Virus record (IMG/VR): IMGVR_UViG_2534681773_000020
DNA: 20,815 nt
Reading direction: 5' to 3' (one strand)
From: a virus
Taxonomy: Duplodnaviria; Heunggongvirae; Uroviricota; Caudoviricetes
In this document: positions 5,430-20,013 of the stretch, piece after piece
Position numbering within the stretch: position 1 is the first letter of the stretch
How the letters are laid out: every line of letters starts with the position of its first letter
Translations under genes and position numbers: made by a program
The notes under the pieces: generated by a model
What the model saw: only the letters and a program-made list of their open reading frames with translations
Database searches by the model: none
What the model was told of the DNA's origin: nothing

Positions 5430-5554
5430 GCTGACCTCATTTCCCCTTAACGCTGGGGTAGCGGAACTAAAAACCTGCTGCGCTGTTATACAAAGTGTTC
5501 CCGCCGTCATGTTCATACGCCTCGGGCTGGCTACTTACCCCCTGACCACTGCTT

Positions 5555-7845: not shown

Positions 7846-8865
7846 ATGGCCGCATTACCATACATGCAACTGTACATAGCTGATTACCTTGCTGACACCA
7901 TGCATTTGTCAGCAGAGGAGCACGGTGCGTATTTGTTGCTGATGTTCAATTACTGGCAAACAGGAAAGCCAATACCTAAAAACAGGCTGGCAAAAATTTC
8001 CCGTCTGACTAACGAGCGATGGGCTGATGTGGAACCATCCTTGCGGGAGTTTTTTTGCGATAACGGCGATGAATGGGTGCATCTTCGGATTGAGGAAGAT
8101 CTGGCATCAGTCAGGGAAAAATTAACCAAAAAATCAGCCGCCGGAAAAGCATCTGTTCAAGCCAGAAGAAGCAGAAAGGAAGCAGATGTTCAAACAAAAC
8201 AAGAGAGAGATTTAACAGGTGTTCAAACAAATGTTGGCGTGGTGTTTGAACATGGCGCAAACACAAAAGCAACTAATAAAGATACAGATACAGATCTAAA
8301 AGAATTAAACCCCACACATAACGCGCGCATGCGCGAGAGTGCTCCGACCAGTGAGTCGAATGGCGTGCCGTTGCAGGCAGCGGAACCTGATTACCTGGAA
8401 GGCCTGAGCGAACCCATCGGGAAATTTCCGATGACCGATGGCTGGCATCCGTCGCCGGATTTTCGACGGCGGGCTGCACTGTGGGGAGTGACTCTGCCGG
8501 AGTCGGAATTTACGCCTGCTGAACTTGCCGCCTTCCGGGACTACTGGGCAGCGGAGGGGAAAGTGTTTACGCAGATTCAGTGGGAGCAGAAATTCGCCCG
8601 TCACGTAAATCACGTCAGGGCGCAGGTTAAACCAGTCAGCAAGGGGGTAAACCATGCAGCAGCACCAGGTGGCACCGCATCACGGGCAGTTCAGGAAATT
8701 CGGGCAGCACGTGAGCAGTGGGAACGTGAAAACGGATTTATCAGCGACGGAAACGGCCTGGAAGCTGTGGGAACTCATGGGGGAGGTTTATTCGAACCGC
8801 TGGACCCAGAAAAACGGGGCCGCACCTTCGAAGCTCTGGATTGCACAGATTGGCGCGATGACTGA
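7846..8865 (+). CDS. Replication initiator, DUF1376 (YdaU-like) family; lambda O functional analog
   Basis: N-terminal DUF1376-like motif YIADYLADTMHLSAEEHGAYLLLMFNYWQTG; GAGG 5 nt upstream of ATG 7846 (ORF track alternative 7735); internal iteron-like repeats and AT-rich stretch in the inter-domain linker. Confidence 0.7.
   Translation: MAALPYMQLYIADYLADTMHLSAEEHGAYLLLMFNYWQTGKPIPKNRLAKISRLTNERWADVEPSLREFFCDNGDEWVHLRIEEDLASVREKLTKKSAAGKASVQARRSRKEADVQTKQERDLTGVQTNVGVVFEHGANTKATNKDTDTDLKELNPTHNARMRESAPTSESNGVPLQAAEPDYLEGLSEPIGKFPMTDGWHPSPDFRRRAALWGVTLPESEFTPAELAAFRDYWAAEGKVFTQIQWEQKFARHVNHVRAQVKPVSKGVNHAAAPGGTASRAVQEIRAAREQWERENGFISDGNGLEAVGTHGGGLFEPLDPEKRGRTFEALDCTDWRDD
8187..8310. repeat. 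Putative replication origin: TGTTCAAACAAA direct repeats at 8187-8198 and 8220-8231, inverted copy TGTTTGAACA at 8243-8252, followed by A-rich tract
   Basis: Direct repeats 33 bp apart inside the initiator gene linker, analogous to lambda ori iterons within O. Confidence 0.4.
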
Positions 8866-9319
8866 GCAGCAAATCCGACAGGTCTGCCGCCAGTGCATGG
8901 ACCGCTGCCGGGCGGGTGAAACATGGCCTCCGGACCTGGCTGAGTTTGTGGCACTGATTTCGGAAAGCGGAGTCAATCCATTCGGTCTGACGGTGGATGC
9001 TGTGATGGAGGAGTACCGCCGCTGGCGCAATGAGTCCTGGCGATACGACGGAAGTGATAAGTACCCGTGGTCTCAGCCTGTGCTGTATCACATTTGTCTC
9101 GAGATGCGTTCAAAGGGGATCGAGCGTCAGATGACCGAAGGGGAGTTAAAACGACTTGCAGAACGGCAGCTGACGAAATGGGCAAAGCATGTTGGTAACG
9201 GCCTCAGTGTTCCGCCAGTCCGGCGGCAACTGGCGGCACCCAAACGACCGTCGGGACCAACGCCAATTGAGTTGCTGAAACAGGAATATGAGCGCCGGAA
9301 AGCGGCTGGTTTTGTATGA
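8654..9319 (+). CDS. Replication protein P-like (DnaB helicase loader)
   Basis: C-terminal half resembles lambda P (LAEFVALI, YPWSQPVLYHI, TEGELKRLAERQL); AAGGGGG SD before ATG 8654; alternative starts at 8777 and 8858 (ATGACTGA overlap with upstream stop). Confidence 0.65.
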   Translation: MQQHQVAPHHGQFRKFGQHVSSGNVKTDLSATETAWKLWELMGEVYSNRWTQKNGAAPSKLWIAQIGAMTEQQIRQVCRQCMDRCRAGETWPPDLAEFVALISESGVNPFGLTVDAVMEEYRRWRNESWRYDGSDKYPWSQPVLYHICLEMRSKGIERQMTEGELKRLAERQLTKWAKHVGNGLSVPPVRRQLAAPKRPSGPTPIELLKQEYERRKAAGFV

Positions 9320-9741: not shown

Positions 9742-10037
9742 GGGTGAGGGTTTATATCGCTGGTCCGATGATCGGGTATAAAAATTTCAACCGTGAGGCG
9801 TTCCACAATGCGGAAGAGGAACTGAAACGGGAAGGGCATACAGTCTTAAACCCGGCAGTACTTCCGGACGGGCTGACACAGCCGCACTACATGGATATTT
9901 GCATGGCAATGATTCGTTGTGTGGATGCGATTTACATGCTGAAAGGCTGGCAGCGGTCAGCTGGCGCTAAGGCAGAACTGGCGCTGGCGGAGAAACTGGG
10001 GCATGCAGTTATTTTCCAGGAGACAGCCAGTGAGTGA
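9738..10037 (+). CDS. DUF4406 / nucleoside 2-deoxyribosyltransferase-like fold protein (99 aa)
   Basis: GTG start with AGGAGG 7 nt upstream, GTGA overlap with previous stop; N-terminal YIAGPM motif typical of the nucleoside deoxyribosyltransferase-like superfamily. Confidence 0.65.
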   Translation: MRVRVYIAGPMIGYKNFNREAFHNAEEELKREGHTVLNPAVLPDGLTQPHYMDICMAMIRCVDAIYMLKGWQRSAGAKAELALAEKLGHAVIFQETASE

Positions 10038-10290
10038 ATCAAAATGCCAGGTTCATGGCAACAAAATAGAACCGTGTGCTGCATTGGCAAAAGCACTCGA
10101 ATATGGAAATCCAGCATTTAAGAGTAAAGGCATATTTATCCCGGAACGCGTGAATATAAACACCGGCGAGCCAGGCTTAGACATCGCTCAAATACACTCC
10201 GGTCAATATGTTGGTCGTGGCGTTGCAATGTGTTTTTGTCCGTTCTGTGGTGAAAGTCTGAAAACATGGGGAGGAGGAAGTAACCGGTGA
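10030..10290 (+). CDS. Hypothetical small cysteine-containing protein (86 aa, possible zinc-binding CPFCGE motif)
   Basis: GTG at 10030 with AGGAGA 7 nt upstream; ORF track ATG alternative at 10003 overlaps previous gene. Confidence 0.5.
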   Translation: MSESKCQVHGNKIEPCAALAKALEYGNPAFKSKGIFIPERVNINTGEPGLDIAQIHSGQYVGRGVAMCFCPFCGESLKTWGGGSNR

Positions 10291-10402
10291 GCGAAATTAA
10301 GTTTCAGGCACTGCGTGAAGTGAAAGAGAAAGCATAATCCAAATCTGAATAATTAAATTCAGCACTGTAAATAAAATTTAATCCTTAACCGGAGGAGTAT
10401 CT

Positions 10403-10615
10403 ATGTTAAATACACAAAAAAACATTAACGCGGAAAAATATAACGAGTGGGTGAAAAAATTTTCTGAGCAGATTCTTAAAATCACTGGCGACGAGAATGT
10501 GGCAAAAAATGAATTAGAACCATGGACGCCTGAAGGGGGCGAACCAAATTATTGCTGGTGGGAGGTTAATCCAGTTGATGCTGCAAATGAAGCTATGAGT
10601 TATCACAACGATTAA
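10403..10615 (+). CDS. Hypothetical protein (70 aa) in AT-rich island
   Basis: GGAGGAG SD 5 nt upstream of ATG; followed by GNRA-loop hairpin CCGCCC-GAAA-GGGCGG at 10626-10641. Confidence 0.6.
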   Translation: MLNTQKNINAEKYNEWVKKFSEQILKITGDENVAKNELEPWTPEGGEPNYCWWEVNPVDAANEAMSYHND

Positions 10616-10866
10616 TGTCAGGAGGCCGCCCGAAAGGGCGGTAATGAATGGTCACATTATTTAGAAAAAATATCCGCGAAAGAGTAGAACAACAGAATTT
10701 CTGTTTCTCATTCTGTTTATCGTGTTGATGATACCGATATCCCCGTTAATCCTAGTATGGATAATCGGAAAAATAATTGAGCCAGTTATTGAATTGTATA
10801 ACGACGTGGTATGGGCGTCATTCAACACACTGCACAATAAAATTAATCCGTATAAGGAAAACTGAT

Positions 10867-11130
10867 ATGGCAACTTTGACAAAAAAAGAACGGGCATGGT
10901 TGAACGAATTACAGGAAGTTCTTGATCGCTGTCCATCACCGAAAAAAATTGGCTTTTACACCATTGGCGATAAAAGCATTTACCTGTATGACCTACGCCG
11001 CATGGATGAAATCATGGAGGCTCTTGATAATCGTTCGTCGATGGATTGGTGTGTTGCTGTTCATGATATGAATGCAGGGTTTGATGAAAAGATTTTGTTC
11101 CCCTCATCAGTTGAAAGCACTGCGGGTTAA
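10867..11130 (+). CDS. Hypothetical protein (87 aa) in AT-rich island
   Basis: ATG at 10867 with AAGGAAA 6 nt upstream; ORF track TTG start at 10777 considered less likely. Confidence 0.6.
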   Translation: MATLTKKERAWLNELQEVLDRCPSPKKIGFYTIGDKSIYLYDLRRMDEIMEALDNRSSMDWCVAVHDMNAGFDEKILFPSSVESTAG

Positions 11131-11140
11131 GGAGTAACAC

Positions 11141-12010
11141 ATGACCACTATTACCAAAGAACGTATTGAATTGTTCATTAAAAATCCGCTTGAAAACGGG
11201 CTTACCCGTGGTGAACAAATGGAACTGGCACGGATTGCGCTGGCATCGCTGGAAGCAGAGCCGGTGGCAAAGATTATAGCTCATTACCCATTAGGGGTTG
11301 ACGTAGGCAAACAAAAATTTGTACAGGCCATTAGAGAGCTTCCTGACTTTGGCGGATATCTATTTGCCGCCCCTCCAGCGCCGATAGTGCCGGAAGAAAT
11401 GTATTGGCAGGATGCGCCAGTTGAAGGCAGCAGCAAAGCGGCTGCATACGCTACAGGCTGGAACGATTGCCGCGAAGCCATGTTTCAGTCCGGAAACTTT
11501 CGGGAAAATAAAGATTCGTCAACCAATAATTTTCGGAAAATCCCGGAAGCGTCAACCAGCTCTCCGGTAACTCCGGCTCTTCTGCCTGGTGGTTTCACCA
11601 TTGAGGAGGCGAAGGAATTACATGAAGACCTGGCACGCAGCCACATAAGCAAGGCCTTAAGTGGCGAAAAGATGAAAAAGAAAGATCGCGATGCTGATTT
11701 GCGCTGGATTCATGGCGTTATAGTTCAGGCAGCGTGGTTTGTAAAAGCATCACTGGAGCAGAATGCACTATCGGGCAACTATCCGGTAACTCCGGATAGT
11801 TGGATAAGCTGTAGTGAGCGAATGCCGGATACCAAAACAGCCGTTCTTGTTGCCAGGGATTTTGGCAGGAAAGGTGACTGGCGAATGAAATGGGCGACTT
11901 ACATCCCGGGGCATCCTGACGCTAATGATGGGTGGATAATACCTGGTGCGTCGTGGATACCATCACACTGGATGCCTCTACCAGAACCGCCGCAGGAGGT
12001 GCGCCAATGA
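11141..12010 (+). CDS. DUF551 domain-containing phage protein (289 aa)
   Basis: AAGGAG SD 6 nt upstream; C-terminal WIIPGASWIPSHWMPLPEPP resembles the DUF551 signature seen in nin-region proteins. Confidence 0.7.
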   Translation: MTTITKERIELFIKNPLENGLTRGEQMELARIALASLEAEPVAKIIAHYPLGVDVGKQKFVQAIRELPDFGGYLFAAPPAPIVPEEMYWQDAPVEGSSKAAAYATGWNDCREAMFQSGNFRENKDSSTNNFRKIPEASTSSPVTPALLPGGFTIEEAKELHEDLARSHISKALSGEKMKKKDRDADLRWIHGVIVQAAWFVKASLEQNALSGNYPVTPDSWISCSERMPDTKTAVLVARDFGRKGDWRMKWATYIPGHPDANDGWIIPGASWIPSHWMPLPEPPQEVRQ

Positions 12011-12125: not shown

Positions 12126-12230
12126 ATGTCGGATGATATATCACTGGCAATGGAAGGTGCGCTGGCTGTTGTTGCTGTTGTGGGCGTTTACTGCCTGGTT
12201 GTGTTTTTGATGGATCGACTAGGGAACTGA
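12126..12230 (+). CDS. Tiny hydrophobic ORF (34 aa, MSDDISLAMEGALAVVAVVGVYCLVVFLMDRLGN), putative small membrane peptide
   Basis: Strong SD AAGGAGGG 5 nt upstream; one TM helix; followed by 22-bp perfect palindrome. Confidence 0.45.
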   Translation: MSDDISLAMEGALAVVAVVGVYCLVVFLMDRLGN

Positions 12231-12238
12231 ATTCATTA

Positions 12239-12475
12239 CGATATGGGAATTCCCATATCGGGTAAAAACGGTTTGCGGTAAAGCGAGAGTTAAGTAGAAT
12301 TGCTGCGGGTGCTTGAGGCTGTCTGCCTCGGGCATGCCACCGTAAGGCAGACAGAGAAAAGCCCCAGTTAACATTACGCGTCCTGCAAGACGCTTAACAT
12401 TAATCTGAGGCCCAATCTATGCTTCACAAACGTAGGTTAGCCTCTTACGCGCCGAAAGGCAAGGAGAAGCAGGCT
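12239..12475. promoter_or_regulatory. Structured leader/regulatory region upstream of hok-like toxin (candidate mok-leader and antisense Sok-like RNA region)
   Basis: 22-bp perfect palindrome CGATATGGGAATTCCCATATCG (12239-12260); 10-bp inverted repeat CTGTCTGCCT/AGGCAGACAG (about 12319-12354); direct repeat TTAACATTA x2 flanking GCGTC/GACGC hairpin (about 12368-12402). Confidence 0.4.
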
Positions 12476-16723: not shown

Positions 16724-16799
16724 GGCCCTTTAGCTCAGTGGTGAGAGCGAGCGACTCATAATCGCCAGGTCGCTGGTTCAAATCCAGCAAGGGCCACCA
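16724..16799 (+). tRNA. ileZ: tRNA with anticodon CAT (Ile2 lysidine-type or Met; resembles ileX/ileZ class), CCA encoded
   Basis: Cloverleaf folded by hand: acceptor GGCCCTT/AAGGGCC, D-stem GCTC/GAGC, anticodon loop CTCATAA, T-arm GCTGG-TTCAAAT-CCAGC. Confidence 0.85.
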
Positions 16800-16899
16800 T
16801 CACAAACCGCCATTAGCTTATCAGGAAGAGCAGACGACACCATAACAGGGTTGTTGGTGCGGGGGCGGGTCCCCGATGGCGGTCCATTATCGGTATTCT

Positions 16900-16976
16900 G
16901 CGTTGTTAGCTCAGCCGGACAGAGCAATTGCCTTCTAAGCAATCGGTCAGTGGTTCGACTCCACTACAACGCGCCA
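16900..16976 (+). tRNA. argO: tRNA-Arg (anticodon TCT), CCA encoded
   Basis: Acceptor GCGTTGT/ACAACGC, D-stem GCTC/GAGC, anticodon stem ATTGC/GCAAT with loop CTTCTAA, T-arm AGTGG-TTCGACT-CCACT. Confidence 0.85.
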
Positions 16977-17016: not shown

Positions 17017-17145
17017 TCTGCGCCACGCCCGGCGCATATCAACCACAGAGCCTTTCGGGGGTGAGCTTACGGAGTGGTCAGTGTGACTTTCTCTGTGGGC
17101 AGATCGCTCCCGGGCGTTGGCTCACCCACCCAAAGGAACGTCACG

Positions 17146-17577
17146 ATGTTTGGAATCTTCAAAAAGAAAACCCGCAGAGCGGCAGCGGAAATTAAAAAGT
17201 TTGAGAAACGCGATCTGGCACAGGCGGTGATTAACGCTGCATACCTGGTGGCCTATGCAGATGGTGAATGCGAGGCATCCGAGAAAGCGAAGATCGAACA
17301 GGTCTTACGTAATCAGCCTGCGTTGTCTGCGTTTACCTCGGAAATTAATGCGATTAGCGCAACCATTATCGGTCAGCTGGATACCAATTTTAAAATTGGT
17401 CGTCGTGCCGCGTTACGCGAGATTGAGGATGTGAAACACGATACGCGTGAAGCGGAAGATGTGCTGGATGTGGCGGTGGCCATTGCGGAGGCAGACGGCG
17501 AAATTGAGCCGGAAGAGCGCAAGGTGCTGGAAGAGATTGCCGGTGTTCTGGGTCTTCGTCTGGAGAATCACCTGTGA
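17146..17577 (+). CDS. TerB-like (tellurite-resistance TerB fold) protein, 143 aa
   Basis: Paired acidic motifs YADGECEASEKAKIEQVL and EADGEIEPEERKVLEEIAGVLGL typical of TerB domains; ATG 17146 with AAGGA upstream. Confidence 0.65.
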   Translation: MFGIFKKKTRRAAAEIKKFEKRDLAQAVINAAYLVAYADGECEASEKAKIEQVLRNQPALSAFTSEINAISATIIGQLDTNFKIGRRAALREIEDVKHDTREAEDVLDVAVAIAEADGEIEPEERKVLEEIAGVLGLRLENHL

Positions 17578-18162: not shown

Positions 18163-20013
18163 ATGACATTTAAACATTATGATGTTGTCAGGGCGGCGTC
18201 GCCGTCAGACCTTGCGGAAAAGCTGACACACAAACTGAAAGAGGGCTGGCAGCCGTTTGGTAGTCCGGTGGCCATAACCCCTTATACCCTGATGCAGGCG
18301 ATTACAGCAGAAGGTGATGTGGTGGTCAGTGGTGCAACTGAGCCGGATTGGTACTACGTCATCGTACTGGCCGGGCAATCCAATGCCATGGCTTACGGTG
18401 AAGGGCTTCCGCTGCCGGATTCATACGATGCTCCGGATCCGCGCATTAAACAGCTGGCGCGCCGCAGTACAGTTACGCCGGGTGGGGCTGCCTGCAGATA
18501 TAACGATATTATTCCGGCCGACCACTGCCTGCATGATGTGCAGGATATGAGTACGCTGAATCATCCGAAGGCAGACCTGAGCAAAGGGCAGTACGGCTGT
18601 GTCGGCCAGGGCTTACATATTGCCAAAAAACTGCTTCCGTATATCCCGAATAACGCGGGGATCCTGCTGGTACCATGCTGTCGTGGTGGTTCGGCATTCA
18701 CCCAGGGCGCGGAGGGGACATTCAGTGCGGACGCGGGGGCCAGCCAGGATTCGGCACGCTGGGGTGTGGGTAAACCGTTATATCAGGACCTGATTGCGCG
18801 CACCAAAGCTGCATTACAGAAGAACCCGAAAAATGTGTTGCTGGCGGTGTGCTGGATGCAGGGAGAGTTTGACATGAGCGCCGCCACCCACGCACAGCAA
18901 CCTGCGCTGTTTACAGCCATGCTGACACAGTTTCGTGTTGACCTCTCCGTGTTTAACGCGCAGTGCCATGGTGGCAGTGCTGCAGATGTGCCGTGGATTT
19001 GTGGTGACACGACGTATTACTGGAAAAATACATACGCTACCCAGTACGACACCGTGTACGGCGGGTATAAAAACAGGGAGAGTGAGGGCGTTTATTTTGT
19101 GCCCTTCATGACAGACGGTAACGGCGTCAATACCGCCACTAACGCGCCGGCAGAAGATCCGGATATTCCGGCATCAGGATATTACGGTGCGGCATCGAGA
19201 ACGAATGGAAACCAGGTATCATCAAACCGCCCGACACATTTCAGTTCATGGGCGCGCAGGAGCATTATTCCGGATCGTCTGGCAACCGCTATTCTGAACG
19301 CAGCCGGGCGCACCTCAGCCTTCATCAGTGGTAAGGCACCGGAAATCAAACCCTCGCCCGGCGGCAACACGCCATCGGGTCCGTCTGCAGATACGTCCGT
19401 TCGCACAATCTCCCTGCTGCCGACAGCCGGAGAGGCTGCTGCGCAGGGCTGGACCATTAAGGACGGCGGAATTCAGTTGTCGGGTGGTGTATTTAAGATC
19501 GCCAAGCAGAGCAATAAAACCTGGTCCCTGACGCATCCGGTGGATGACGCAATTACCCTGCTGACACAGGGCGGCAGACTGACCTGTAAGTTCCGCCTGT
19601 CAGGCGCGCTGACCAACAATCAGTTCGGGCTGGGGATTTATCTGTATACGGATGCTCCCGTTCCTGATGGTGTGGCGATGACGGGTACCGGTAATCCGTT
19701 CCTGATGTCGTACTTCACTCAGACCACTGACGGCAGAGTGAATCTGATGCATCACAGGAAAGCCGGAAACACGAAGCTGGGGGAGTTCGGCGATTACGGT
19801 AACGACTGGCAGACGCTGGAGCTGGTGTTCACCGCCGGCAGTGCCACGGTTACTCCGAAACTGAATGGAGTGGCTGGCCCGGCATTCCAGGTCATAAAAG
19901 ACAGTCTGACACTGGGGCTGAATGCGCTGACGCTGACGGATATTACCAAAAATGCAGCGTATGGCGTTGAGATAGAAAGTCTGGTGCTGGAGATAAATGC
20001 ACCGGCAGCATAA
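18163..20013 (+). CDS. nanS-p: Prophage sialate 9-O-acetylesterase (NanS-p type; N-terminal DUF1737-like region plus SGNH/SASA esterase domain)
   Basis: 616 aa; GGGAGGAA SD; N-terminus MTFKHYDVVRAASPSDLAEKL; SASA block VLAGQSNAMAYGEG; the position downstream of the late tRNAs is where Stx phages carry this gene. Confidence 0.8.
   Translation: MTFKHYDVVRAASPSDLAEKLTHKLKEGWQPFGSPVAITPYTLMQAITAEGDVVVSGATEPDWYYVIVLAGQSNAMAYGEGLPLPDSYDAPDPRIKQLARRSTVTPGGAACRYNDIIPADHCLHDVQDMSTLNHPKADLSKGQYGCVGQGLHIAKKLLPYIPNNAGILLVPCCRGGSAFTQGAEGTFSADAGASQDSARWGVGKPLYQDLIARTKAALQKNPKNVLLAVCWMQGEFDMSAATHAQQPALFTAMLTQFRVDLSVFNAQCHGGSAADVPWICGDTTYYWKNTYATQYDTVYGGYKNRESEGVYFVPFMTDGNGVNTATNAPAEDPDIPASGYYGAASRTNGNQVSSNRPTHFSSWARRSIIPDRLATAILNAAGRTSAFISGKAPEIKPSPGGNTPSGPSADTSVRTISLLPTAGEAAAQGWTIKDGGIQLSGGVFKIAKQSNKTWSLTHPVDDAITLLTQGGRLTCKFRLSGALTNNQFGLGIYLYTDAPVPDGVAMTGTGNPFLMSYFTQTTDGRVNLMHHRKAGNTKLGEFGDYGNDWQTLELVFTAGSATVTPKLNGVAGPAFQVIKDSLTLGLNALTLTDITKNAAYGVEIESLVLEINAPAA

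Follow-up and report, generated by a model that had tools for sequence, protein, structure and literature searches.

A marked drop in base composition within the nin region of a lambdoid prophage raises the question of whether the genes beneath it are cargo acquired recently and as a unit, or content that such a region ordinarily carries. We addressed this for positions 10300-11140 of a 20,815-nt DNA (IMGVR_UViG_2534681773_000020; hereafter the window, i.e., the whole stretch of DNA analysed), which an initial annotation had described as a two-gene island of recently acquired cargo flanked by hairpins. The drop is real. In sliding windows of 841 bp, the interval has a GC content of 0.390 compared with a window mean of 0.491 (sd 0.041), a value matched or undercut by only 0.5% of such windows. 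The limits given for the dip did not hold, as the trough is broader, extending over ~10008-11196 with a turn in cumulative GC deviation at 10008; the GC global minimum of the window, 0.383, falls at 10344-11184. The trough includes the upstream 86-aa gene (orf86, 10030..10290, + strand; phrog_4030 at 1e-28, with a C-terminal CFCPFC motif), which lies outside the interval first proposed. GC of orf86 is 0.456 and its GC3 is 0.356, with a GC3 of 0.58 for the preceding DUF4406 gene.

The assignment to a nin-type region proved correct. On the + strand, the order is P (8858-9319), DUF977, DUF4406, orf86, the island, orf289, hokD, DUF968, RusA and DUF1133, with the replication gene P on one side and hokD, DUF968, RusA and DUF1133 on the other. 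The genes of the interval are carried on the PR-operon strand between the replication genes and the Q-type antiterminator/RusA, as is typical of a nin array, and gaps of only 1-10 nt separate the packed genes from their neighbours. Both ORFs reported earlier exist with their Shine-Dalgarno (SD) sequences: orf70 (10403..10615, + strand, 70 aa; GGAGGAG 5 nt upstream) and orf87 (10867..11130, + strand, 87 aa; AAGGAA), the latter encoding an acidic alpha/beta protein. The statement that they lack recognisable motifs is valid for Pfam but not for PHROGs, in which both match existing families over their full length (orf70: phrog_4659, positions 1-70 of 70, E = 3.9e-49; orf87: phrog_1714, positions 1-87 of 87, E = 9.5e-51). 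Furthermore, the apparent 250-nt gap between them is a third gene, overlooked in the two-gene description. This DUF4014 gene (phrog_1832; 10648..10865, + strand) is frameshifted, and its C-terminal 47 aa match Pfam PF13198 at profile positions 26-72 with 56.8 bits against a gathering threshold of 23.2. When intact, DUF4014 normally encodes a predicted 72-aa single-pass membrane protein.

The right end of the island does not behave as a boundary. There, orf87 starts 1 nt past the DUF4014 stop and stops 10 nt short of the 289-aa gene orf289 (11141..12010, + strand), which combines an Ead/Ea22-like N-terminus with a DUF551 C-terminus (DUF551 at 6.7e-19, phrog_60 at 6.5e-60). In four of six loci from other genera, the orf87 homologue is followed after 11-175 nt (within 14 nt in three of them) by an ORF whose N-terminus appears similar by eye (MTTITKEQL..., MTKFTKEQL...), and in phage vB_EcoS-689R5, orf87 stands between Ea22-like and EaA-like genes. 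Since orf289 is the usual right partner of orf87, the island has no true right boundary. On the left, a 16-codon mini-ORF, MSEIKFQALREVKEKA (10289..10339, + strand), opens with a GTG overlapping the TGA stop of orf86. Its start, GTGAGCGAAATTAAG, and end, AAGCATAA, are the first codons and last bases of a gene at another locus (L130, 1062-1373; VSEIKEMPVV...RNKAEA*), and the mini-ORF is a 51-nt, internally deleted remnant of this 103-aa gene, which precedes the same leader in other prophages.

This AT-rich untranslated leader of orf70 (10340..10402, + strand) contains the SD at 10391-10397 and the first of the two hairpins taken as flanks of the island, CTGAAT-AATTAA-ATTCAG at 10345-10362, which exists but is weak (-4.2 kcal/mol, z -2.8). 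The leader is kept behind three different upstream genes, with all stem changes wobble-compatible, and is homologous to the leader of DUF4014 loci that lack orf70, sharing AATCCTTAACCGGAGG. The second, GNRA-loop hairpin between the two ORFs is confirmed as a strong structure at 10626-10641 (-15.5 kcal/mol, z -3.6; 0 of 200 shuffles equally stable) that occurs nowhere else in the window. Both hairpins thus lie inside the island, in the 5' leader of orf70 and in the 5' region of DUF4014, rather than at its edges.

The GAAA hairpin probably serves as a structured spacer within a split ribosome-binding site, which we suggest from its comparative anatomy and from the precedent of phage T4 genes 38 and 25. 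The candidate site (10620..10650, + strand) consists of an SD, AGGAGG, at 10620-10625, the hairpin CCGCCC-GAAA-GGGCGG, the spacer TAATGA at 10642-10647 and the DUF4014 ATG at 10648-10650. At 22 nt from the AUG, the SD is too distant along the linear sequence; by folding out 16 nt, the stable hairpin between them would bring it to an effective spacing of 6 nt, inside the 5-11 nt range. The same 6-nt spacing is found in hairpin-less DUF4014 alleles, which have a plain AAAGGAG-AGTGAT-ATG/GTG. The hairpin accompanies DUF4014 even behind unrelated upstream genes, being present in 21 distinct 5' variants that differ in this respect. In T4, folding shortens the SD-AUG spacing from 22 to 5 nt in gene 38 and from 27 to 11 nt in gene 25 (Nivinskas et al. 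1999; Malys and Nivinskas 2009; reviewed in PMC3014915). The resemblance is closest to gene 38, with an SD 22 nt from the AUG, a stable hairpin wholly in between and a folded spacing of ~6 versus 5 nt. Unlike the T4 cases, the candidate site belongs to a temperate lambdoid phage, has a GAAA tetraloop, precedes a gene for a 72-aa membrane protein and is predicted from sequence. It also shows no compensatory covariation: a search for this among the DUF4014 loci that diverge most found a hairpin with hardly any variation, and the few stem variants are single-base and one-sided, most of them wobble-compatible transitions and two of them breaking a pair.

A contrary reading, possible but on the unlikely side, is that the hairpin represses translation by hiding the SD-like AAAGGG at 10633-10638, so that DUF4014 is translated only when ribosomes terminating at the orf70 stop codon melt the structure, or else that it serves to stabilise or process the mRNA. 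The AAAGGG, which spans part of the loop and of the 3' arm at a distance of 9 nt from the AUG, does resemble the AAAGGAG of hairpin-less alleles, and were it the real SD, the effect of the hairpin on translation would be negative instead of positive. Only 10 nt separate the orf70 stop codon (10613-10615) from the stem, and the hairpin is very stable. Nevertheless, nearly all variants, including loci that lack orf70, keep a perfect AGGAGG directly 5' of the stem, with no start codon at a normal distance from it, and the post-stem spacer is 6 nt throughout. At the loci lacking orf70, the previous gene ends ~128 nt upstream, making translational coupling impossible there. Two other roles for the GAAA hairpin were rejected. 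It is not a rho-independent terminator, because the stem is followed by TAATGAATGG without a U-tract, and the terminator scan made no call. It is not a lambda-type nut site/boxB, because boxA-like CGCTCTTA (≤1 mismatch) is absent within ~900 nt on either strand, the nearest + strand occurrences being at 5481 and 12693; the hairpin is ~4 kb away from cro and, in other phages, goes along with DUF4014 to the PL-side region. Searching 9900-11400 against Rfam with E values up to 1 returned no match. If the split-site reading is right, the region is of interest as a probable SD-hairpin-AUG initiation region in a temperate coliphage.

Comparison with related phages and prophages showed that presence/absence is polymorphic, each gene independently of the others, and not conserved in all. 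Of 5426 complete E. coli genomes, only 400 carry the full cassette (≥80% query coverage). Among 80 IMG/VR DUF4014 loci, all four combinations occur: 15 carry both orf70 and orf87, 11 orf70 only, 10 orf87 only and 44 neither. The left neighbour differs between USDA5905, Sakai and O26, giving three in all; the left junction of the window itself was found in one complete genome only. Matches to phages are piecewise, one gene at a time. Relative to Sakai Sp10, orf70 differs by ~8% in DNA, whereas DUF4014 and orf87 are 99-100% identical, implying a recombination breakpoint within the island. A query for empty sites, with the left flank joined to the right, found no genome in which the flanks abut, and the right flank normally comes with orf87. 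In phage 933W, DUF4014 is gene L0067 of the PL-side exo-xis/ea region. Instead of a single unit, then, the interval comprises three independently assorting modules and a 51-nt remnant of a fourth gene. We also show that the three proteins are real and under purifying selection, as dN/dS was 0.04-0.33 across the three families (0.10-0.29 for orf70) wherever the synonymous differences sufficed for a comparison.

These observations bear on the proposal of recently acquired cargo, in which "cargo" stands and "recently" is not supported. Variable cargo is what the genome counts and the independent assortment describe. Low GC gives no date: this prophage's own immunity region likewise has a low GC content (0.41), and hundreds of genomes carry these low-GC alleles with 90-100% identity. 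We consider it likely that the interval is a mosaic accessory-gene array of a lambdoid nin-type region. The compositional dip would be routine mosaic content of the nin/ea pool, neither a new element nor a fresh horizontal acquisition; the genes are in fact already annotated, as hypothetical proteins, in Sakai Sp10, O26 11368 and phage 933W, and the cassette order and annotation are seen in USDA5905, Sakai Sp10 and O26 11368. The nin gene pool has been described as 30-50 non-essential genes, ~10 per phage, that are not independently mobile (PMC5630979). Our interval resembles this pool, as known from ninA-ninH of lambda, P22, HK97 and Sf6 (Juhala et al. 2000, Casjens et al. 2004 in PMC5630979), in its position and PR orientation, and likewise in its tiny packed genes, combinatorial presence/absence and members damaged by frameshift or deletion (PMC5630979). 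It differs in that the only Pfam-A match is to DUF4014, so that we found nothing connecting the three proteins to a named nin family. A second likeness is to the exo-xis/ea genes of Stx and P22-like phages (ea22, eaA, orf60a/61/63), through the DUF4014 module, which is L0067 in 933W, and the Ea22-/EaA-like genes that flank orf87 in other phages, although here the modules are on the PR side. The combinations observed suggest that phages would swap these genes by recombination at gene boundaries.

The improbable alternative is an autonomous moron, that is, recent cargo with its own promoter and terminator that serves lysogenic conversion or defence from the repressed prophage. Deviant composition (GC 0.39 versus 0.49), with the GC minimum of the window falling here, absence from related phages and polymorphic presence agree with it, as does a 112-nt noncoding AT-rich gap 5' of orf70 (10291-10402), which leaves room for a promoter. 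Moreover, transcription of the Sakai orf70, ECs1949, is detectable and, under ClO2 stress, varies together with that of other prophage genes (PMC7286201). However, neither a promoter nor a terminator was found on the + strand in or next to 10290-11140 by consensus patterns, a kind of scan that a weak or non-sigma-70 promoter in 10291-10402 could escape: there is no sigma-70-like site at ≥9/12 matches (8/12 at best in a relaxed scan), and both hairpins lack a T-run. The closest + strand consensus sites are terminator-like at 12181 and promoter-like at 12394. Further against a moron are the gaps of a few nucleotides to the neighbours, the lack of any PADLOC match, and the orientation of the modules, which point the same way as the surrounding operon at each locus checked, namely those of 933W (PL side), vB_EcoS-689R5 and this prophage (both PR side). 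Like morons in the Hendrix/Juhala sense, such as HK97 gp15 and lambda bor/lom (definition quoted in PMC2629481), these genes are compositionally deviant, variably present extras within a phage operon, but they amount to three modules rather than one and fit operon read-through. The interval is probably mosaic nin-region gene-pool content read through from PR. Given the shared strand with the early-right operon, the tight packing and the missing transcription signals, orf70, DUF4014 and orf87 would most likely be transcribed from PR during lytic growth or induction.

Within this nin-type array, loss of one base from an A7 run has inactivated or strongly attenuated the DUF4014 of this prophage. 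The run at 10665-10670 is A6, not A7; frame 0 meets a stop codon at 10726-10728, and the -1 frame continues to 10863-10865. There is thus no intact ~72-aa frame here, while an intact A7 allele exists elsewhere, and adding one A restores a 72-aa protein 100% identical to intact genes at two other loci (L004, L005). PGAP calls the gene frameshifted or a pseudogene in the identical USDA5905 sequence and in O26 11368, and it is a pseudogene in many prophages. Among IMG/VR contigs, A6 occurs in 21 and A7 in 13, and the two cassettes differ by only three substitutions in 1230 nt, without secondary lesions. The simplest reading of the A6/A7 change is a slipped-strand pseudogene.

That DUF4014 nonetheless remains alive, either because A6 yields a low level of full-length protein by -1 frameshifting or polymerase slippage, or because A6 and A7 form a reversible switch, seems decidedly improbable. 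The zero-frame AGA AAA AAT does contain an X_XXY_YYZ heptamer, A_AAA_AAT at 10665-10671, in the frame of the ATG at 10648, and a -1 slip there would give a 72-aa product with K8N as its sole difference from the intact protein. A6 being no rarer than A7 and the near-identity of the two cassettes also favour it. On the other hand, shifting in E. coli is far less efficient on A_AAA_AAU than on A_AAA_AAG, and a run of six A is short for transcriptional slippage. We found neither a stimulatory structure 5-9 nt downstream nor a frameshift conserved in homologues: the predicted structure lacks significance (z -1.7) and begins as close as 3 nt to the heptamer, and other DUF4014 alleles are plainly in frame (A7, AAAAGAA, GGAAAAATT), indicating that there is no conserved frameshift signal. 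In addition to the PGAP pseudogene call, all A6 copies have the same cassette background, in keeping with one recent mutation. The site is therefore like homopolymer-tract alleles and dnaX A_AAA_AAG-type sites in its one-base change within A7 and its A_AAA_AAT in the correct frame, but unlike dnaX-type -1 sites in having no conserved stimulatory elements and homologues that are in frame. The allele, a one-base frameshift in an A run that is widespread in EHEC prophages and affects the gene of a small membrane protein, is of some interest. Our literature search found no paper naming DUF4014 or "sugar acetyltransferase inhibitor" (the submitter name of two DUF4014 entries), and for ECs1949 and ECs1950, it found only one stress transcriptome and one CGH table.

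One could also join these features into a single reading, in which the leader, optionally orf70, the hairpin and DUF4014 form one regulated unit, A7/A6 acts as a reversible switch or low-level -1 attenuator instead of a dead end, and, separately, orf87 is a new alpha/beta fold working with Ead/Ea22; we regard this combination as improbable. If it were true, a split ribosome-binding site of the T4 gene 38 type, which we have not found noted before in lambdoid phages, would drive the synthesis of a 72-aa membrane protein.

With respect to function, the remote homology search proposed for the two proteins was extended to all three and their neighbours. Pfam, PHROGs, NCBIfam and PADLOC returned only families of unknown function, the two proteins themselves matching PHROG families of this kind, and profile searches of PDB sequences gave nothing below E ~0.5; neither library nor fold searches gave any of the three a function. 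Scarcely credible is the idea that orf70 and orf87 were acquired together as a functional pair (toxin-antitoxin or defence/anti-defence): although both are small and lie near each other and near hokD, in a part of the prophage that varies, a third gene lies between them, they are apart in 21 of the 36 viral loci having either gene, their ranges differ (orf70 in Escherichia and Shigella only, orf87 across Enterobacterales) and neither matches Pfam, NCBIfam or PADLOC. Their independent assortment already largely refutes the pairing. Speculatively, the three could be dispensable early proteins each acting alone on host or competitor targets, in which case orf70 might bind proteins or act as an inhibitor, DUF4014 would be a small protein of the inner membrane, and orf87 would be a small alpha/beta protein with an unmatched fold and a link to Ead/Ea22-like genes. 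Small early phage proteins are a frequent source of host-takeover and anti-defence functions, with no specific pointer here. The 87-aa family is of interest in its own right, as it is found across Enterobacterales phages and has a confident predicted fold without a PDB match. The orf70 protein is acidic (pI 4.5) and predicted to be all-helical; its AlphaFold2 model (pLDDT 72) had no PDB match by Foldseek at E < 5. Close orf70 homologues are 77-93% identical where full-length, identity falling below 77% only for truncated entries. An exhaustive profile search also recovered long repetitive proteins, which we judged spurious, and added three small, distant relatives that share the motif DPVDAANEAxSYYxD.

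The window represents a lambdoid prophage whose integration site adjoins yccA. Its left part carries, in order, integrase, exonuclease, dicB, a LexA-type repressor and Cro; the replication side follows with a DUF1376 O-like gene, P, DUF977 and DUF4406, leading to the interval at 10300-11140, which is succeeded by an Ead/Ea22-DUF551 gene, hokD, DUF968, RusA, DUF1133, a DNA methylase, tRNAs and lysis genes. Given this order, with O-like/P to the left and hokD, DUF968, RusA and DUF1133 to the right, the interval occupies a position functionally equivalent to the lambda nin region, in line with the initial annotation. The nin region has been described as a pool of 30-50 small non-essential genes, about ten per phage, that are not independently mobile (PMC5630979), and the mosaic pattern reported here agrees with that picture. 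The interval consists of ordinary accessory genes of lambdoid phages that had been catalogued before. The initial observation was mostly correct, if incomplete, and reading the interval as variable nin-region cargo was right in spirit, but it is not one recently acquired island of two genes bounded by hairpins. Only minor leads emerge, namely a putative split ribosome-binding hairpin, an A-run frameshift allele and an unmatched predicted fold of the 87-aa protein.

Both small ORFs noted initially, orf70 (70 aa, 10403-10615, +) and orf87 (87 aa, 10867-11130, +), have reasonable Shine-Dalgarno (SD) sequences and match phrog_4659 (3.9e-49) and phrog_1714 (9.5e-51), respectively, over their full length. 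The 250 nt between them are not spacer: they hold an overlooked third gene, a frameshifted DUF4014 / phrog_1832 gene (10648-10865, +). Against diverged alleles in fetched loci, dN/dS was 0.10-0.29 for orf70, 0.07-0.33 for DUF4014 and, where there were at least 5 synonymous differences, 0.04-0.21 for orf87; all three are real genes. The identical DUF4014 sequence in E. coli O55:H7 USDA5905 and O26:H11 11368 is labelled a 'frameshifted' pseudogene by PGAP. The lesion is the loss of one A from a homopolymer (A6 at 10665-10670, A7 in intact copies), and restoring it yields 72 aa with a basic N-terminus, a single hydrophobic helix (FLFLILFIVLMIPISPLILVWIIG) and a short C-terminal tail, 100% identical to the intact genes of two viral contigs (L004 and L005). 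In IMG/VR, A6 occurs in 21 contigs versus 13 with an otherwise identical A7. Since all A6 copies lie within one cassette type, orf70-DUF4014-orf87, and just 3 substitutions over 1230 nt separate an A7 from an A6 cassette, either the frameshift is recent or the A-run flips back and forth. The A6 run also creates A_AAA_AAT, a canonical -1 slippery heptamer, in frame.

The claim of a single island fails because the genes assort separately. Phages match the interval piece by piece, one gene at a time. Of 80 viral loci with DUF4014, orf70 and orf87 occur together in 15, orf70 alone in 11, orf87 alone in 10 and neither in 44. All four combinations therefore exist. Of 5426 complete E. coli genomes, 400 carry the full cassette (>=80% of the query) and 2141 at least some part of it, which supports the variability expected of cargo. 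The 951 bases around the interval are 100% identical to USDA5905, but the whole window is only ~96% identical to that prophage. The gene upstream of the cassette differs in all three of USDA5905, Sakai Sp10 and O26:H11 11368. Compared with the Sakai alleles, orf70 differs at ~8% of its bases but identity is 99-100% for DUF4014 and orf87, placing a recombination junction inside the island. In phage 933W the DUF4014 module (gene L0067) sits in the PL-side exo-xis/ea region, and in vB_EcoS-689R5 orf87 is flanked by Ea22-like and EaA-like genes. In other genera, four of six loci have, 11-175 nt past the orf87 homologue (<=14 nt in three of the four), the start of an ORF with an N-terminus similar by eye to that of orf289, the right-hand neighbour of orf87 (289 aa, 11141-12010, +); the right edge is no true boundary. 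At the left, a 16-codon mini-ORF at 10289-10339 (MSEIKFQALREVKEKA) overlaps the stop of an upstream 86-aa gene (10030-10290, +). It begins and finishes with codons that match the two ends of a 103-aa gene (intact copy at 1062-1373 of contig L130), marking it as an internally deleted remnant; in other prophages the 103-aa gene precedes the same leader.

The reported drop in base composition is genuine, although its limits were drawn too narrowly. GC is 0.390 across 10300-11140 against a window mean of 0.491 (sd 0.041, 841-bp windows); windows of this size reach so low a value in just 0.5% of cases, and the lowest of all (0.383) is at 10344-11184. The trough extends from ~10008 to 11196, beginning one gene earlier than first described, because GC3 is already 0.356 in the 86-aa gene versus 0.58 in the gene preceding it. 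The immunity region is the next-lowest patch (0.41), so that low GC is not peculiar to the interval. Furthermore, orf87 homologues in loci from other genera have a GC of 0.46-0.54, at most about 5 points from their surroundings, indicating that low GC belongs to the E. coli alleles and not to the family.

Both hairpins seen initially exist. The CTGAAT/ATTCAG hairpin (10345-10362) is weak (-4.2 kcal/mol, z -2.8) and lies in an AT-rich leader that is kept upstream of orf70 behind different genes. This leader is homologous to the DUF4014 leader of loci without orf70 (common AATCCTTAACCGGAGG), and thus orf70 behaves as an insertion or deletion in a leader-DUF4014 unit. The CCGCCC-GAAA-GGGCGG hairpin (10626-10641) is strong (-15.5 kcal/mol, z -3.6, 0/200 shuffles as stable) and travels with DUF4014, not with orf70, being found after orf70 and also after unrelated sequence (...CTGCACCCTCAGAACAT). 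It always has (C)AGGAGG directly 5' and exactly 6 nt between its 3' side and the ATG, and this perfect SD is conserved within non-coding sequence. Another, hairpin-less DUF4014 allele class reads AAAGGAG-AGTGAT-ATG/GTG, again with a 6-nt spacer. An SD-hairpin-start codon arrangement has been demonstrated experimentally for T4 genes 38 and 25 (PMC3014915); DUF4014 similarly has a perfect SD lacking a normally spaced start, and a stable hairpin takes up the 16 additional nt. This likeness favours a split ribosome-binding site, and we lean slightly, within the overall explanation, towards the hairpin being part of one. The chief alternative is that the AAAGGG in the loop and 3' arm mediates SD occlusion or translational coupling; because the hairpin hardly varies, covariation does not arbitrate between the two. 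A terminator (no U-run) and a nut site (no boxA nearby) were ruled out, and Rfam returned no match.

A moron, as usually defined, requires independent expression (PMC2629481). Neither a promoter nor a terminator was detected on the + strand when the interval and its immediate surroundings were scanned for consensus patterns, and a relaxed promoter scan of the two leaders gave at best 8 of 12 matches. The genes are tightly spaced, with the DUF4014 stop 1 nt from the orf87 start and the orf87 stop 10 nt from the next start. From these results we infer computationally that the island genes are transcribed by read-through from PR.

Searches of Pfam, NCBIfam, PADLOC and PDB sequences for function were empty, and we found no functional data on these genes in the literature. 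Close relatives of orf70 (77-93% identical where full-length) were found in no genera other than Escherichia and Shigella. When 1.8 billion representatives were searched exhaustively with a profile, just three more relatives emerged; these are small and distant and share DPVDAANEAxSYYxD as a C-terminal motif. The orf70 product is acidic (pI 4.5) and predicted to be helical with moderate confidence (pLDDT 72), and a fold search with the predicted structure gave no match. In contrast to orf70, orf87 ranges Enterobacterales-wide (52-100% identity) with an invariant RCPSP...G...G...YD...P pattern. Speculatively, these might be dispensable early proteins, each acting alone: orf70 an acidic helical binder or inhibitor, DUF4014 a small inner-membrane protein, and orf87 a small alpha/beta protein associated with Ead/Ea22-like genes. 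Two DUF4014 database entries (P0258, P0310) are named 'sugar acetyltransferase inhibitor' and the PHROG 1832 annotation reads 'released from the phage upon host infection'; we found no paper supporting either.

We noticed near-identical orf87 with E. coli prophage neighbours on short contigs (L118, L119, L126) binned to Segatella copri and Collinsella MAGs, almost certainly mis-binned E. coli prophage DNA. The product of the 86-aa gene (phrog_4030) contains five cysteines, some of them in a C-terminal CFCPFC motif suggestive of a zinc-ribbon-like protein. In the window orf289 is intact, Ead/Ea22-like at its N-terminus and DUF551 at its C-terminus, whereas RefSeq PGAP gives three fragments or pseudogenes in USDA5905 despite 100% identical N- and C-terminal protein segments. 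The same pattern recurs in O26 11368, and the split seems to be an artefact of annotating a mosaic fusion protein. Finally, a TerB-domain ORF (17074-17577; Pfam PF05099, 6.8e-16) is positioned between prophage tRNA genes (16724-16976) and a SASA-family esterase gene (18163-20013), the slot occupied by stx genes in Stx phages. Although otherwise related, the USDA5905 prophage lacks an equivalent of the segment 17013-18103.
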